This document shows positions 8,515 through 46,700 of a stretch of DNA of 64,000 bases, piece after piece. The DNA comes from a virus. Location of the stretch: IMG/VR virus record IMGVR_UViG_3300007535_000003, positions 1-64,000 of that record; one strand, given 5' to 3'. Position 1 is the first letter of the stretch; the number at the start of each line of letters is the position of its first letter. A program made the position numbers and the translations under genes. The notes below the pieces were generated by a model that worked only from the letters and a program-made list of their open reading frames with translations, was not told the origin of the DNA and made no database searches.

Positions 8515-8539
8515 TACGTATAACTGTAAAAATTGTTAC
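8515..8539 (-). promoter_or_regulatory. Putative late promoter GTAAC-N16-CGTA
   Basis: Minus strand GTAAC-AATTTTTACAGTTATA-CGTA in the intergenic gap upstream of the lysis/tail genes; motif recurs elsewhere. Confidence 0.6.
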
Positions 8540-39957: not shown

Positions 39958-40578
39958 ATGAAAAAAAACTTTAACAAAGAAATAGACATACTTAGACAGC
40001 TTCTCATATATAAGGAAAACTGTCAGTACGAAATGAGCTTAAGACAGCCGATAGGTGACGGACCTATGGCGCTTGTAAGTAGAGCCAGGTATGTTACAGG
40101 GTATATGTCTACAAGGTGGTTTGATCTATTTGACATATACAAAGAGTTACAACTAACAGTTGGTTGGAATTTAAGTGATTTATTAAGTAAAAGCATAATT
40201 GACTTAGGATGTGGAACAGGATTACTTGTAGACTTATTCAGCATAATATTTAAGAAAACTTATGGAATAGAAGCTGATTGGAATCTTTGTAAGATAGCTA
40301 CAATAATGAGGCCTCATCTAGAAATATACAATGGATATGTACAGGAAAGAGTAGACTTAATACTCAGGTTAGATCCTGACATTATTTATGCTTTTAATAT
40401 CACAGGTGAACCAAGAGAAACATTTGATGAGTTATTCAGGAAGATGCGCAAGGGACAAGTATTTGTACATCTAGGGGGCTCAACAGAGATAGAAGAGTTA
40501 ATAGATGAACACAAGTTTAATACATCTAACAAAGAGGAAGATAGGCAATCAGCCAGAGTACTGATAGCTATTAAATAA
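39958..40578 (+). CDS. Class I SAM-dependent methyltransferase
   Basis: IIDLGCGTG, YGIEAD. Confidence 0.8.
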   Translation: MKKNFNKEIDILRQLLIYKENCQYEMSLRQPIGDGPMALVSRARYVTGYMSTRWFDLFDIYKELQLTVGWNLSDLLSKSIIDLGCGTGLLVDLFSIIFKKTYGIEADWNLCKIATIMRPHLEIYNGYVQERVDLILRLDPDIIYAFNITGEPRETFDELFRKMRKGQVFVHLGGSTEIEELIDEHKFNTSNKEEDRQSARVLIAIK

Positions 40579-40596
40579 AACCACAAAATTAAAAAT

Positions 40597-40725
40597 ATGG
40601 ATTGGGAACAATCAAGAGACGAAGATAGAGAATTTGATCCTAATGATGGACAAGATATCTACGGATGCATACTAGGAGCAATTATGTGGATAGCACTAAT
40701 AGCACTAGCGATTTTCTGTAGATAA
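40597..40725 (+). CDS. 42-aa membrane peptide
   Basis: Acidic N-terminus plus TM (GCILGAIMWIALIALAIFC); motif upstream. Confidence 0.5.
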   Translation: MDWEQSRDEDREFDPNDGQDIYGCILGAIMWIALIALAIFCR

Positions 40726-40845
40726 ACCACAAAAATGAAATTGTTAAAAATATAGAGAGATCTTGGAGCCCAATCAGGGCTATCGGCGACGACACGGTGG
40801 TAACCAGCCCATACAGCAGTCGTACTTCAGGTCTCCCTAACTTAT

Positions 40846-40965
40846 GGTCCGTTCGTCTAGTGGTAGGACGCCGAGCTGTTAATACTTTATACATGCACTA
40901 GCTATGTTAGAGTATCAACCATGGTTTGCCCCACGGAAACGGAGGTTCGACTCCTCCACGGACTG
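40846..40965 (+). tRNA. tRNA-like RNA (Glu/Asp-type body) with the anticodon arm extended into a long hairpin
   Basis: Acceptor GGTCCGT/ACGGACT; D-arm GTCTAGTGGTAGGAC; T-arm GGAGG-TTCGACT-CCTCC; about 45-50 extra nt in the anticodon arm. Confidence 0.7.
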
Positions 40966-40970
40966 CTGTT

Positions 40971-41163
40971 AGCCATATAGCTCAAAAGTGTTACACTCAA
41001 GTTCCTAGGAATCGGCTGTAACCCCCAAGGATATGCAGAGGAGAATGGAACTTATTTGGACTTAAAATCCAATCCATTCTAGGCCACCTCACGCAGAGTC
41101 CGAGTAGCGGAAGAGCCCCTAATAAATTATAGGGAGATCTGGGTTCGAGTCCCAGTATGGCTA
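40971..41163 (+). tRNA. tRNA-like RNA with ~120-nt structured insertion in the D-loop
   Basis: Acceptor AGCCATA/TATGGCT; D-stem GCTC/GAGC; CCCTA/TAGGG arm with an 8-nt loop; T-arm CTGGG-TTCGAGT-CCCAG. Confidence 0.7.
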
Positions 41164-41198
41164 CTATTTTTATTTACAAACCACAAAAATTAAATATT

Positions 41199-41366
41199 AT
41201 GTCAGCATTAATTGCATTCCTTGTAACAATGGCATTCCTAAGTTTAATGGGCTATGCCTTATTACCTTACGGGACTAAGGAGGAAGCCTCAACGAGAAAA
41301 GTAGTAGGTATTGTAGCAATTTTAGCTACAGTAGTAATACTAATATTAACTTTAATAATATCCTAA
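41199..41366 (+). CDS. Small two-TM membrane protein
   Basis: Likely start ATG 41199 after the motif. Confidence 0.55.
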   Translation: MSALIAFLVTMAFLSLMGYALLPYGTKEEASTRKVVGIVAILATVVILILTLIIS

Positions 41367-41369
41367 AGT

Positions 41370-41627
41370 ATGGAAAAACGTTATGCCCTTAACAGGGGAG
41401 ACATCTTAGTCTTACTGTTAAATGGGAAGAAAAAGACATTTAGGGTCTTATCCTCAAAAGATAGCATGGGAAAAGACGCCGACAGTAGTAATAAGAAAGA
41501 GCCTTTGGATCTCAATATAAGTAGCGAGCTATTCAAAGAGATCGAAAAGAAACTGCCTGAAGTATTTTTTAAGAAAATCCGATGGAAATCTAACTCAGTA
41601 AGATTATTAAGCGTTAAAAGGAGCTAA
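41370..41627 (+). CDS. Hypothetical protein
   Basis: ORF in operon. Confidence 0.55.
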   Translation: MEKRYALNRGDILVLLLNGKKKTFRVLSSKDSMGKDADSSNKKEPLDLNISSELFKEIEKKLPEVFFKKIRWKSNSVRLLSVKRS

Positions 41628-41630
41628 GAC

Positions 41631-42074
41631 ATGTGGAAATCTAACTCAAAGCAAAGCAAAGACAAAATAAGTAAGGGCAGTTTAGTAATTATTGACATGC
41701 CCGACTTTATTGGAGAATATGTACCTTCAATAAGTAAGGTAGCGTGTAGCTACAAAGAAAAGATGCTACATTTCTCTAATGTTAGCAATGCTTTTGGTAG
41801 CTTATTTGGTGAAGAACACCATTTAATAGAAGTACCAAGAGCAGTCATACTCTATAACAAGACACATTTTCTTAAGAGTGTATTAGAGCTATCTGAAGCA
41901 TATAAAGAAGATAGCTTAGATTCTTTATTCTTTTACGGTCGTAAAATAGTACTACCAGTCCATGAGGGATACTTAATGCCGGTAAGTAAAATAAAGGATC
42001 CACACAAAAGAGGACTATGTTATAGAGAATGGGAAATGTTAAAGACTAAGGGATATAGTAACCTTATAACCTAA
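41631..42074 (+). CDS. Hypothetical protein
   Basis: ORF in operon. Confidence 0.55.
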   Translation: MWKSNSKQSKDKISKGSLVIIDMPDFIGEYVPSISKVACSYKEKMLHFSNVSNAFGSLFGEEHHLIEVPRAVILYNKTHFLKSVLELSEAYKEDSLDSLFFYGRKIVLPVHEGYLMPVSKIKDPHKRGLCYREWEMLKTKGYSNLIT

Positions 42075-42135
42075 CTTAACTAACAAACGATTTACTTACG
42101 CTGCTAGCTAGGGCTTTAGCGGACTCGGGTTCGAT

Positions 42136-42756
42136 CAAAAGGTCGAAGTTAAACTGGGTGAATTCAGGGAAACCTAAGTCACAATGATAAGGCAACCCTG
42201 AGCCAAGCCCTTAAGAGGGAAGGTGCAGAGACTACCTGAATACAGGCTAGAGCGCCCAGCACTTAAAAGTGAAGAGATAGTCCGATACTCCTGAGAAATT
42301 AGGAGAAGAAGCGAGATGTAAATTCTTGACGTTTTGATAAGGTTTCTTTTGTATATTTACCATTACGAGGTGTTATACTCTTCAATTCGTTAAGTATCAT
42401 ATCTATACGTCTACGCTTCTTGGGATGTCTGGAATTTATGTAAGATAGTACGTTTATACATTTAGGTAAATAAGTATACCTCAGCTCATAATTAGTAAAA
42501 TCACCTGATTTTTTAGTACAAATGAATCCATTATGACCTGTTTCAAGTTTAATAAATTTTTCTATTTCCACAAGTAGGTCATATTCGTTATTACTAAAAG
42601 AAATAACAGGTGATCTTTCGCAATTCTTATGTAAACGTAAAAATGTTATCGTGCCGTCAGCATCAAAGAAACCTGTAATATATTCCCAACCCATATTTTT
42701 ATTGAATATACGGACGCAGGTTTGAAATGTTACTGTTCCAGATGTTTTAACTATTG
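42136..42756 (+). mobile_element. Group I intron in the tmRNA T-loop
   Basis: P1 TTCGAT|C-AAAA-GGTCGAA with U:G at the splice site; P3 CTGGGTG/CGCCCAG; P4 TTCAGGG/CCCTGAG; GCAGAGACT and AGATAGTC (P7); P9 CTCCT/AGGAG; terminal G at 42756. Confidence 0.9.
42299..42694 (-). CDS. Single-motif LAGLIDADG homing endonuclease, antisense inside the intron
   Basis: WEYITGFFDADGTI; TPRNGKYT; lies in the intron 3' (P9) region. Confidence 0.88.
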   Translation of the reverse strand: MGWEYITGFFDADGTITFLRLHKNCERSPVISFSNNEYDLLVEIEKFIKLETGHNGFICTKKSGDFTNYELRYTYLPKCINVLSYINSRHPKKRRRIDMILNELKSITPRNGKYTKETLSKRQEFTSRFFS

Positions 42757-42789
42757 TCCCGAAGGCTCCACTTATCTAAACACTGTATT

Positions 42790-42930
42790 ATGAAAGCATT
42801 AAAACTACCACGGAAGGAGAAAAAGAGACGTAAGAAGGAGATACAAAAGTATCTAAGAAATGTTCTTAAGGTAGAAGCTAATACTAAAAACATCCGATTA
42901 TCGGAAATAGGATACAGGCTAGTAAAATAG
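42790..42930 (+). CDS. 46-aa basic peptide in the tmRNA intervening segment
   Basis: MKALKLPRKEKKRRKKEIQKYLRNVLKVEANTKNIRLSEIGYRLVK. Confidence 0.45.
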   Translation: MKALKLPRKEKKRRKKEIQKYLRNVLKVEANTKNIRLSEIGYRLVK

Positions 42931-43168
42931 CCCGTTGCCAATGATAGCAGTAGGGCAGGTGAGGAGAAAATATTATAATTTCACGGAGGTTGGTAACTCA
43001 GGTAGCCCCTGGGGTGTAACCTGCCCTTTGTTTTCAACGTTAAAAATATGGGGCCTAATTGGTTTTGACGTTATGGTACCCAGTTAGCACGAAAGGTGTA
43101 AGTAATTTTTAAATGGCGAATCTGAAATGATGCAATTGCTTAGAGCAGCTGCTTAATCGGTGAGTCTT

Positions 43169-43195
43169 GGGGGACATTAATAGTCCCCCTTTTTC
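43169..43195 (+). terminator. Terminator after the tmRNA coding piece
   Basis: GGGGGAC-ATTAATA-GTCCCCC-TTTTT. Confidence 0.8.
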
Positions 43196-43219
43196 TTTAA
43201 CCATTAAAACTAACCAAAC

Positions 43220-43768
43220 ATGGATAACTTATTTAGGAAGACACTACTCCAAGATCTTAAAGATCAATATTTGGAGTTACGGAAAGACTTCTTTAGGGCT
43301 AAAAAAAGAGGCAACAAAAGGGAAGCAAATTCCCTGCGAGAACAGCTTTCAACACTTTCCGCCTTAATCGGAGAAATTGAGAATATGGAAAAGAAGAAAG
43401 CATCATCCAGCTTTGAAGGAGACAAAAAGTACTTAAGGAAATACTTATTTGATACACTAACTGCTTCTTTGACTGAATCCAAAGATAGTCGTAAAGGTAG
43501 ACTTTTCAGAGATAAGTGTATCAACGAAGTTGCAACTATAACGAAAGCTTCTCATAAGCACTTGTTTGAAGAAGATGATAAGTTAAGTCCAGAAGAGGCG
43601 TATAATATCATTAATACGCTTAGTAAGTTTGGTATGAAGGAATTCAGGGAAAGAATCAGTGAAGCAAGAAAAGACGACAGGGGTAGAGACAGAATTGTCA
43701 AGTTTGTCTTTTCAAATTCACCTGAAGATCGAAATAAAATCGATATGGTGATTAAGAAAGTTCTATAA
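43220..43768 (+). CDS. Hypothetical protein
   Basis: 182-aa ORF. Confidence 0.65.
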   Translation: MDNLFRKTLLQDLKDQYLELRKDFFRAKKRGNKREANSLREQLSTLSALIGEIENMEKKKASSSFEGDKKYLRKYLFDTLTASLTESKDSRKGRLFRDKCINEVATITKASHKHLFEEDDKLSPEEAYNIINTLSKFGMKEFRERISEARKDDRGRDRIVKFVFSNSPEDRNKIDMVIKKVL

Positions 43769-45388: not shown

Positions 45389-45390
45389 CA

Positions 45391-46690
45391 CATAATATTT
45401 TTTGTGGTTTGAGTCGATTTAGGTGCGAGCCTATTTCGGCTTCAATTTTTGTAGCAGTTCTTGAGAGAACCTTCACCCTACCGCCTTTGGATTCGGCAAT
45501 GTTGGGAATACCAAGGACAATGCCTACTACCTATTAGCTACTCAATATCTACAAAACTACTCTCCTTATGAAGTATCCTAGGAAGATGGGTTCCAATTAT
45601 TGATTTAAGCGCACTCTGAGGAACTGGCAGACCCGATGGATACATTAAGGTAAATAGGTCTAACGCAACCCATGGTCAAATCCGTACTCTTAAGTGTGTG
45701 GGTATTACCCTTAAGAGCTTATGCATGCTCGCACTTCCCTTTACGAAAAGGTTGAACTAAGAAGTAACTGAATACGGGGCTGTATATACTGTATACAGTG
45801 GGGCTGGAAACACCAGAAGACTACGATGATGCTACCTAGTAAATAGGCCAAGTGAACACTTAACTTTGAATTAAGTTAGTAACGGGGGGTCCAAATTCCT
45901 TAGAGTCGTTGTATAGACCTTGAGTACCGAGTACAGAGTAGATAATTTATCCCCCAGTAAAGTGGTGTAGTTCAAGCCGCAGTAGCGAAATATGAACTGT
46001 CGTCTGTGATTTCGGCTGGGGTAAGAGGAGGAGGGATGGATACGTGTGCTTCACCGTTTGTATGGTAAGAAGCTACATGTTATACGCCCTAGCCAAGATC
46101 TGAAGCATGAATCGTCAAGTTGGGGCTTAGGAATAAGTTTGATAAATAGCCTGCGATAGGTCGCAATCCCTATCAGTTTCAACCATCGAGTAATGTGGAG
46201 GATACATACATCAATGAGGCGGTAATGCCGCCCAGTATCATGGTAGTGCGCTTTATAACTGATGCAGCCATTTCCAGTTATATTTGCTTGGAGCTACTTA
46301 TGATGCGATACTCTGTAGGACAGAGGGTCTTTAAACTTAGCAGGTAACCGTAAGTGTGGAGAACAAAGTTAAGTCCCTAGAGTAGAACAGACCTCTAACA
46401 GTTCTACAAAATTCAAATAGTAAACAAGGGTTTACAACGGAGCCGTTAGGCTGTTGTATAATATATACCCAAATAAATGTCAGTGTATTTCTTGCCTAAC
46501 CACAGCAAGAGACTGACTAATAGTGACTATAAGAGTATTAAGCTAAGGAGGTTGTGAGTGGATGTGGTTCATGAGGTACCAAGTGCATTTTAAAAGCTTG
46601 GGTGGATGACTTCATTGAATCATAGCTTAATATTAAGTAAGGAAATAGGACTGGGGCTTAAGAAAGTCCCAGCTCCCCAGTCCTTTTAAA
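45391..46690 (+). ncRNA. Large structured non-coding region (one or more ncRNAs)
   Basis: 1.3 kb without a 60-aa ORF in any frame; GC-richer; many hairpins, GNRA loops and long-range complementarities; ends in a terminator at 46647-46687. Confidence 0.65.
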
Positions 46691-46700
46691 CTATTAAAAA

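Follow-up and report, generated by a model that had tools for sequence, protein, structure and literature searches.

tmRNA genes interrupted by group I introns are the closest described counterparts of the locus analyzed here. A total of 883 intron-form tmRNAs have been reported, with introns at four T-loop subsites of which position 7 is the main one; 23 of them carry LAGLIDADG genes, 4 located after P9 and 19 in P7.1 (PMC11915505). The same 2025 catalogue keeps standard, permuted, and intron forms apart and has no class for genes that are both permuted and intron-containing; it does not mention the orientation of the endonuclease gene, and the text of its supplement contains no phage rows. 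Two-piece tmRNAs, in turn, are known from Alphaproteobacteria, some Cyanobacteria and Betaproteobacteria, and phages such as Melnitz (PMC9004378). Regarding intron-borne endonucleases, internal promoters are known for the intron endonuclease genes of phage T4, and collaborative homing has been described, in which a free-standing endonuclease lies beside a gene with an ORF-less intron (PMC2988022). Additionally, antisense His-Cys box endonuclease genes occur in nuclear rDNA group I introns at position L2066 (PMC9548176).

The locus described here lies in a 64-kb stretch of viral DNA, hereafter the window, which covers positions 1-64,000 of an IMG/VR virus record; the record has a length of 97,237 bp and an estimated completeness of 94%. 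According to the window gene map, minus-strand structural genes occupy 1-35 kb and plus-strand genes occupy 35.8-64 kb. The capsid protein shares 61-63% identity with those of crAss-like phages, and both the portal and the capsid matched crAss-type PHROGs. A crude gene map also revealed a 1.3-kb segment (45389-46700) without any ORF of at least 45 aa in an otherwise dense genome. The phage DNA was present at low depth in four DNA runs from soil metagenomes; no RNA run was listed among those containing it. The contigs from these four runs contained neither joined exons across the intron nor an intron-less allele. Short loose-ended contigs at 42191-42233 were identified as intron cores of other organisms. 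Four exact-pattern scans of viral contigs, covering the spliced junction, the exon-intron junction, and the 5' end of the coding piece, returned no matches.

We consider it likely that this crAss-like phage encodes a minimal permuted two-piece tmRNA whose acceptor piece has been invaded at T-loop position 7 by a mobile group I intron. The intron would self-splice, after which tRNA-processing enzymes would free the two pieces, allowing them to pair and to act with host SmpB. An endonuclease encoded within the intron would be expressed from its own minus-strand promoter, situated in the 62 nt before its start codon, and would, as a homodimer, cut tmRNA genes of competing phages at their near-palindromic T-arm DNA where this lacks an intron; repair would then copy the intron in. 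Since the whole homing target lies inside the acceptor piece, homing would be independent of gene permutation, and a T-loop intron could home whatever the topology of its host gene. The nesting of permutation, intron, and antisense endonuclease gene in one gene had been put forward in the original prediction, and it is borne out by the Rfam match, the ARAGORN and cofold results, and the LAGLIDADG fold detailed below.

The intron extends over 621 nt (42136-42756, + strand). It interrupts a tmRNA-like T-arm at position 7 of the T-loop, directly following loop nucleotide 6. A group I intron CM search, as called for in the original prediction, yielded a match to the full length of Rfam Intron_gpI (RF00028) on the + strand, with 97.3 bits and an E-value of 7e-24 (gathering score 50). 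The part of this alignment at 42011-42135 represents a forced P1/P2, and the real core lies at approximately 42150-42305, where P3, P4-P6, P7, P7.1, P8, and P9 are all found. The last base of exon 1 is T42135 and that of the intron is G42756. U42135 pairs with G42142 within a 6-bp P1 formed by UUCGAU (42130-42135) and the internal guide GUCGAA (42142-42147, + strand), which was assigned from the sequence. The elements listed from the outset (P1 with its U:G pair, P3, P4, P7, P9, and the terminal G) are thus agreed upon by the sequence and the Rfam alignment. P2 is absent from the intron, P10 is weak, and the 3' splice site lies 451 nt past P9, with no obvious closing helix. Removal of 42136-42756 restores a 7-nt T-loop, as originally stated; the joined exons read UCGGG-UUCGAU^U-CCCGA, followed by AGGCUCC-A-C, a T-arm and acceptor strand matching the 3' end of standard tmRNAs. 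The coordinates given in the original prediction were all confirmed.

Comparison with related introns revealed extensive covariation. Across a core alignment of 10 relatives, 13 of the 23 consensus pairs are changed on both sides with pairing kept, and these compensatory changes fall in P3-P6. The closest relative, carried by a 2.2-kb metagenome contig (L002; related loci are designated by L numbers throughout), is 80% identical over exactly 42123-42773. It shares the U:G splice pair and the terminal G, and it differs from the window by compensatory changes in P6, P9, and the T-stem. From this architecture we infer that the intron self-splices from the acceptor-piece precursor.

The tmRNA gene surrounding the intron is encoded in permuted order: the 3' tRNA half (42092-42771) precedes the 5' half and coding piece on the same strand by 278 nt. 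Exon 1 of the acceptor piece (42092-42135, + strand), delimited by sequence, cofold, duplex energy, and the ARAGORN 3' tRNA domain, begins with the 3' strand of an inter-piece helix (approximately 42092-42122, from the cofold with the coding piece), followed by GGAC, the T-stem 5' strand UCGGG (42125-42129), and T-loop nucleotides 1-6, UUCGAU (42130-42135). Exon 2 (42757-42771, + strand) supplies T-loop nucleotide 7, the T-stem strand CCCGA, the acceptor strand AGGCUCC, the discriminator A, and a final C, so that CCA is only partly encoded. After a 278-nt intervening sequence (42772-43049, + strand), the coding piece (43050-43196, + strand) was delimited by an ARAGORN "tmRNA*" call after in-silico splicing and by a terminator scan. 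It starts with the 5' acceptor strand GGGGCCU (43050-43056) and a D-loop analogue, continues with the 5' strand of the inter-piece helix (43069-43105), and contains a resume codon GGC at 43115 that opens the tag frame assigned by ARAGORN (43115-43156; GESEMMQLLRAAA, stop). A terminator hairpin (43169-43189) and a T run close the piece. It is a minimal tmRNA with no PK2-PK4 region. The phage has no SmpB gene, and host SmpB would therefore be needed for trans-translation.

The intervening sequence is unusually long and contains several features of its own. These include hairpins, a possible 46-aa, very basic ORF at 42790-42930, a GTAAC-N17-TGTA motif at 42997-43022, and a terminator-like hairpin at 43011-43027, just 22 nt ahead of the tmRNA 5' end. 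Given this hairpin, the two tmRNA pieces might not share one transcript.

The two pieces are complementary to each other. GGGGCCU (43050-43056) pairs with AGGCUCC to form the acceptor stem, including the G3:U pair associated with alanine identity, and a cofold of the pieces yields this stem together with an interrupted helix of approximately 30 bp. The inter-piece duplex has an energy of -31.1 kcal/mol (z -4.3), a value reached by none of 1000 shuffles. One chance partner elsewhere in the window is as strong for the coding-piece helix (-31.7 versus -31.1); the argument for the acceptor piece is therefore carried by its position beside the T-arm and not by energy alone. No other matching partner T-arm was found in the 97-kb genome.

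ARAGORN reported no tmRNA in the raw window, nor when the intron was removed and the full 278-nt spacer was kept. Once the intron was removed and the spacer shortened to about 250 nt or less, a permuted tmRNA with tag GESEMMQLLRAAA was called; the call disappears with a spacer above about 250 nt, the native one being 278 nt, and it vanishes if other DNA replaces the coding piece. ARAGORN tolerates shifts of 1-3 nt, and the exact junction is thus set by the 7-nt loop together with the -1U/omegaG rule. An Rfam search over 40500-43600 at E <= 1 gave no tmRNA-family match, standard or permuted (RF01849-51), with the T-arm being intron-split in the sequence scanned.

Other phage loci place this permutation in context. 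The 5' end could be seen at seven other position-7 intron loci, and each of these genes is one-piece, with its 5' end 310-385 nt upstream. One of the seven belongs to L059, a crAss-like phage that shares 60% capsid identity with the window. In L002, an ORF ends approximately 40 nt ahead of the T-arm, and no 5' strand occurs within 1.5 kb upstream; by its layout, this locus is probably permuted like the window. A scan for intact T-arms identified at least 119 viral contigs; 80 of these were retrieved, in which ARAGORN predicted 25 permuted and 16 standard tmRNAs. Four of these loci (L115, L142, L125, and L162) encode intron-less permuted tmRNAs of the same minimal design as the window, with a short acceptor piece, a resume GGC after AAA(U/C), and a terminator or tRNA right after the tag. 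L125 and L162 (records G008 and G009) are crAss-like, with portals 49% identical to that of the window, and their T-arm equals the spliced exons of L002; they therefore look like empty sites, and L115 is a further candidate. The occurrence of intron-less permuted tmRNAs in crAss-like phages indicates that permutation pre-existed in this phage group and that the intron is an insertion. In both L125 and L162, a tRNA directly follows the tmRNA tag region, and the portal genes contain six in-frame TAG codons, a sign that late genes may be TAG-recoded.

These relatives bear directly on whether the upstream T-arm belongs to a working gene at all. It could be a decayed or att-like remnant of an ssrA 3' end in which an intron chanced to lie, or a misassembly could have produced the gene order; ssrA 3' pieces do often serve phages as attachment sites (PMC9004378). 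On the left side, only the probable source assembly covers the stretch that joins the upstream ORF to the acceptor piece (42089-42132). Against these readings, the two halves pair in both the acceptor stem and a helix of about 30 bp, and the tag frame, terminator, and resume context (UUUAAAUGGC, common to L162) are intact. Furthermore, the minimal permuted layout recurs in L115, L142, L125, L162, and probably L002. As for misassembly, an independent contig from a second sample bridges 42582-43400 with zero differences, and the order of exon 2, spacer, and coding piece is therefore not an artefact of one assembly. Fragment and misassembly alike thus appear very hard to credit, and the invaded two-piece tmRNA remains our preferred reading.

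The intron carries a homing endonuclease gene on the opposite strand (42299-42694, - strand), between P9 and the 3' splice site, with 62 nt separating its start codon from that site. The ORF is intact and encodes a 131-aa protein with the N-terminus MGWEYITGFFDADG and a single LAGLIDADG motif (ITGFFDADG). Pfam matches fell slightly short of their gathering scores, namely PF00961 (LAGLIDADG_1; E-value 4e-4, 21.6 bits versus 23.1) and PF14528 (19.0 bits versus 22.5), and homologues carry precomputed PF00961 or PF14528 assignments. A 40-member family profile detected LAGLIDADG enzymes in the PDB with an E-value of 6e-6, and residues G8, F9, F10, D11, D13, and G14 (G-F-F-D-x-D-G) are invariant in 40 intact homologues. 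The AlphaFold model has a pLDDT of 94.7 and an alpha-beta-beta-alpha-beta-beta-alpha order, and Foldseek retrieved I-OnuI, I-TnaI, and I-CreI with E-values of about 2e-6 and a probability of 1.00. Family profile, AlphaFold, and Foldseek therefore all agree with the initial assignment of an antisense LAGLIDADG gene at 42299-42694. Judged by its substitution pattern, the gene is under purifying selection: dN/dS is 0.11 against the nearest relative, L002, with synonymous sites near saturation. Nearly all homologues are intact, at 130-140 aa.

The insertion point of the gene can be deduced from its 3' end. The P9 hairpin (42288-42305, + strand), assigned from the CM alignment, overlaps with its 3' strand the stop codon of the antisense gene, an arrangement also found in L061 and L002. 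ORF-less relatives of the intron end approximately 7 nt past P9. Together, these two features indicate that the gene was inserted between P9 and the 3' splice site.

To place this arrangement among its relatives, alignment-based scans with the endonuclease family were conducted, and the resulting 57 metagenome and 28 viral loci, 85 in total, were fetched; the family members either neighbour a phage tmRNA gene or lie within one. Scans that used a single protein as query, either the endonuclease or the product of the neighbouring ORF, gave no matches. Layouts were called by combining Rfam on 40 loci, a splice-site script, and the tree, and the counts are lower bounds. Genes were counted as inside where an intron of 620-750 nt encloses them, and a permissive acceptor/T-loop regular expression gave many false matches. 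The sense orientation inside the intron was found at approximately 12 loci (position 3), and the antisense orientation at 16 or more (positions 3, 7, and 8), the latter distributed over at least two clades; the tree needs at least three state changes. All five loci of the window's clade (the window, WIN; L002; L003; L059; L061) are antisense-inside. On these counts, antisense placement is old, stable, and common in this endonuclease family. The premise that intron endonuclease genes are normally in sense orientation therefore stands in general but does not extend to this family, in which antisense is as common as sense.

The remaining loci include genes outside the intron. Four of them (L018:205-1005, L022:3001-3796, L035:3001-3731, and L019:655-1460) have a free-standing endonuclease gene, convergent with a complete, intron-less tmRNA gene and 4-6 nt from its 3' end, a layout resembling what would precede invasion by a mobile intron. 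In L063 and L024, a free-standing, convergent endonuclease gene lies beside a tmRNA gene containing an ORF-less intron. L063 also encodes a GOLLD RNA (1800-2214, + strand; 328 bits) approximately 1.4 kb from its phage tmRNA gene. L007 (1752-2827) and L015 (538-1583) are one-piece tmRNA genes with an ORF-less position-7 intron of 204-213 nt and an endonuclease gene that follows the tmRNA 3' end directly and in the same orientation, which corresponds to a collaborative-homing layout; the endonuclease copy of L015 has an in-frame stop. The relatives thus form a natural series, in which the endonuclease gene is free-standing by an intron-less tmRNA gene, free-standing by an ORF-less intron, inside in sense, and inside in antisense orientation.

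An antisense gene cannot be carried by the transcript of its host, and the original claim that its transcription is uncoupled from that of the tmRNA follows from the opposite orientation. The endonuclease gene is the sole minus-strand gene in a plus-strand block of more than 28 kb, and would consequently need its own promoter. The motif GTAAC-N16-CGTA, predicted to precede the gene inside the intron, is present at 42733-42709 on the minus strand and represents a candidate promoter (42709-42733) conserved upstream of the endonuclease gene. Three exact copies of the motif occur in the window against 0.13 expected, a number reached by none of 100 shuffles, and all three are intergenic and face the next gene. 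Of the exact copies, the one at 8539 lies in the minus-strand structural block, as do two relaxed ones (31099 and 33518); all three precede structural genes. The third exact copy (40800, + strand) lies 21 nt upstream of a tRNA-model match at 40846-40965. The description of the motif as one found before late genes accordingly fits the three copies in the structural block (one of them exact) but not the exact copy that precedes a + strand tRNA. This tRNA-model match (+ strand; 44.6 bits) has a 51-nt anticodon-loop insert, and a second one at 40971-41163 (+ strand; 30.4 bits, barely above the cut-off) has a 126-nt D-loop insert.

Conservation provides a further line of evidence. Motif and spacing are kept in four of the five loci of the window's clade (WIN, L002, L003, and L059); across these four, 9 of 9 motif positions are invariant, compared with 7 of 16 spacer positions. 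This conservation makes an internal minus-strand promoter for the endonuclease gene plausible. A related element, ATTTAC..C.ATCTCC, is found 13-27 nt upstream of family members in all contexts, including free-standing genes, which suggests that it travels with the gene and not with the ribozyme. The candidate promoter of the window (42709-42733) overlaps a sigma-70-like sequence, GTAACA-17-TATATT, that matches sigma-70 at 9 of 12 positions, a score not above that of shuffles; the sigma-70 scan found 4 sites against 4.0 expected and offers no support for a promoter. The host is probably a soil member of the Bacteroidota, and the candidate promoter bears only a loose resemblance to the -7 box of this group (TAnnTTTG).

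The chance-level sigma-70 score leads to the proposal that the endonuclease gene has no dedicated promoter and is a recent passenger, either silent or served by stray minus-strand transcription, for which T4 segD, an antisense endonuclease gene without its own promoter, offers a precedent (PMC2988022). A recent passenger would hardly show a dN/dS as low as 0.11 with synonymous sites near saturation, and the antisense-inside clades retain intact ORFs down to 35-58% identity. Moreover, more than 20 kb to the right is free of minus-strand genes, and any transcript reading through from that side would be stopped by two terminator-like minus-strand hairpins at 42935-42893. We accordingly regard a promoterless gene as improbable and continue to favor an internal promoter.

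The same region also bears a resemblance to the homing site. In the 3' tail of the intron, CGGACGCAGGTTTGA (42711-42725, + strand) agrees in 12 of 15 positions with the exon-1 half of the homing site, CGGACUCGGGUUCGA, read on the same strand; this score was reached by none of 500 shuffles, and the segment overlaps the candidate promoter. It could be an I-TevI-style operator, an exon-duplication relic, or a P1 mimic. If the first applied, 42709-42733 might be mainly an operator, a non-cleavable left-half copy of the homing site that the endonuclease uses to repress its own gene, as I-TevI does in T4 td, where a 15/20 operator overlaps a late promoter (PMC2988022). Left-half matches also occur in L059 (10/15), L061 (10/15), and L041 (11/15), and 10 of 37 family members score at least 8/12 against GGACNNGGGTTCGA within 70 nt upstream, compared with 5% of random windows. 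In L002, L003, and L036, however, the half-site match is weak or missing, a lone half-site should bind a homodimeric enzyme poorly, and the similarity could equally stem from an old exon duplication or reflect an RNA-level mimic of P1. A predominantly operator role thus seems rather unlikely; moreover, an operator still requires a promoter, and it supplements the promoter reading more than it replaces it. The element may act as a promoter, an operator, or both.

The consequences of minus-strand transcription for the tmRNA itself are more speculative. No minus-strand terminator was predicted downstream of the endonuclease gene, and the transcript may therefore extend, in antisense, as far as the ribozyme core and exon 1. 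A "late" timing of this transcript and an effect of it on splicing, both suggested previously, are purely conjectural. Carried further, a timed antisense transcript might pair with the acceptor-piece precursor and block splicing or trigger cleavage, providing an off-switch for phage trans-translation, and endonuclease bound to the homing-site mimic in its own promoter would possibly fine-tune this switch. We rate such an off-switch as a long shot.

The preferred reading, an intron-invaded two-piece tmRNA, would unite in one gene the permuted and the intron-containing forms, which the tmRNA field treats as alternatives. To mature, its RNA would have to self-splice, undergo tRNA-type processing of its ends, and assemble from two pieces, and the gene is thus a demanding test case for RNA gene finders, all of which missed it in the window. 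The locus could also reveal how an endonuclease gene is expressed when the host transcript cannot carry it.

Comparison with the systems introduced above indicates which features are shared. With intron-form tmRNAs (PMC11915505), the locus shares the loop 6/7 subsite, the -1U/omegaG rule, and a LAGLIDADG gene after P9, whereas the gene of the window is permuted and phage-borne, with the endonuclease gene in antisense orientation. Like two-piece tmRNAs, it has the 3' half upstream of the 5' half and tag, base-paired pieces, and an ARAGORN "tmRNA*" call; unlike the known ones, it belongs to a crAss-like phage and is very small, with a 278-nt spacer and an intron-split T-loop, and its nearer relative, L059, has a one-piece gene. 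The introns of T4 resemble it in being phage group I introns, with a candidate promoter of the endonuclease's own and a possible homing-site-like operator, but the endonuclease genes of these T4 introns are sense, encode GIY-YIG or HNH enzymes, and interrupt protein-coding genes, whereas that of the window is antisense, encodes a LAGLIDADG enzyme, and lies in an RNA gene. L2066 introns (PMC9548176) likewise carry endonuclease genes opposite to the ribozyme, with sense and antisense forms in one family; they are, in contrast, eukaryotic and nucleolar, encode another nuclease family, and rely for expression on Pol II signals and spliceosomal introns.

At the protein level, the closest counterparts are the homodimeric enzymes I-CreI and I-TnaI (PDB 1bp7 and 5gkk), which have one LAGLIDADG motif per chain and the same core fold, with TM scores of about 0.65-0.68 over the query. 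Both are encoded by group I introns that interrupt structural RNA genes, and their targets are pseudo-palindromic, as is predicted here; the protein of the window, in contrast, has 131 aa compared with 150-165 aa, at 12-19% identity. The resemblance to collaborative homing lies in the relatives that are free-standing beside tmRNA genes with ORF-less introns (L007, L015, L063, and L024) or without introns (L018, L022, and L035), whereas the endonuclease gene of the window is already in the intron, and the evolutionary series is inferred from the tree. Each layer (the permutation, the T-loop intron, and the antisense endonuclease gene) was thus already known, and their combination in one gene appears to be new; the novel part is the nesting of all three, in a crAss-like phage.
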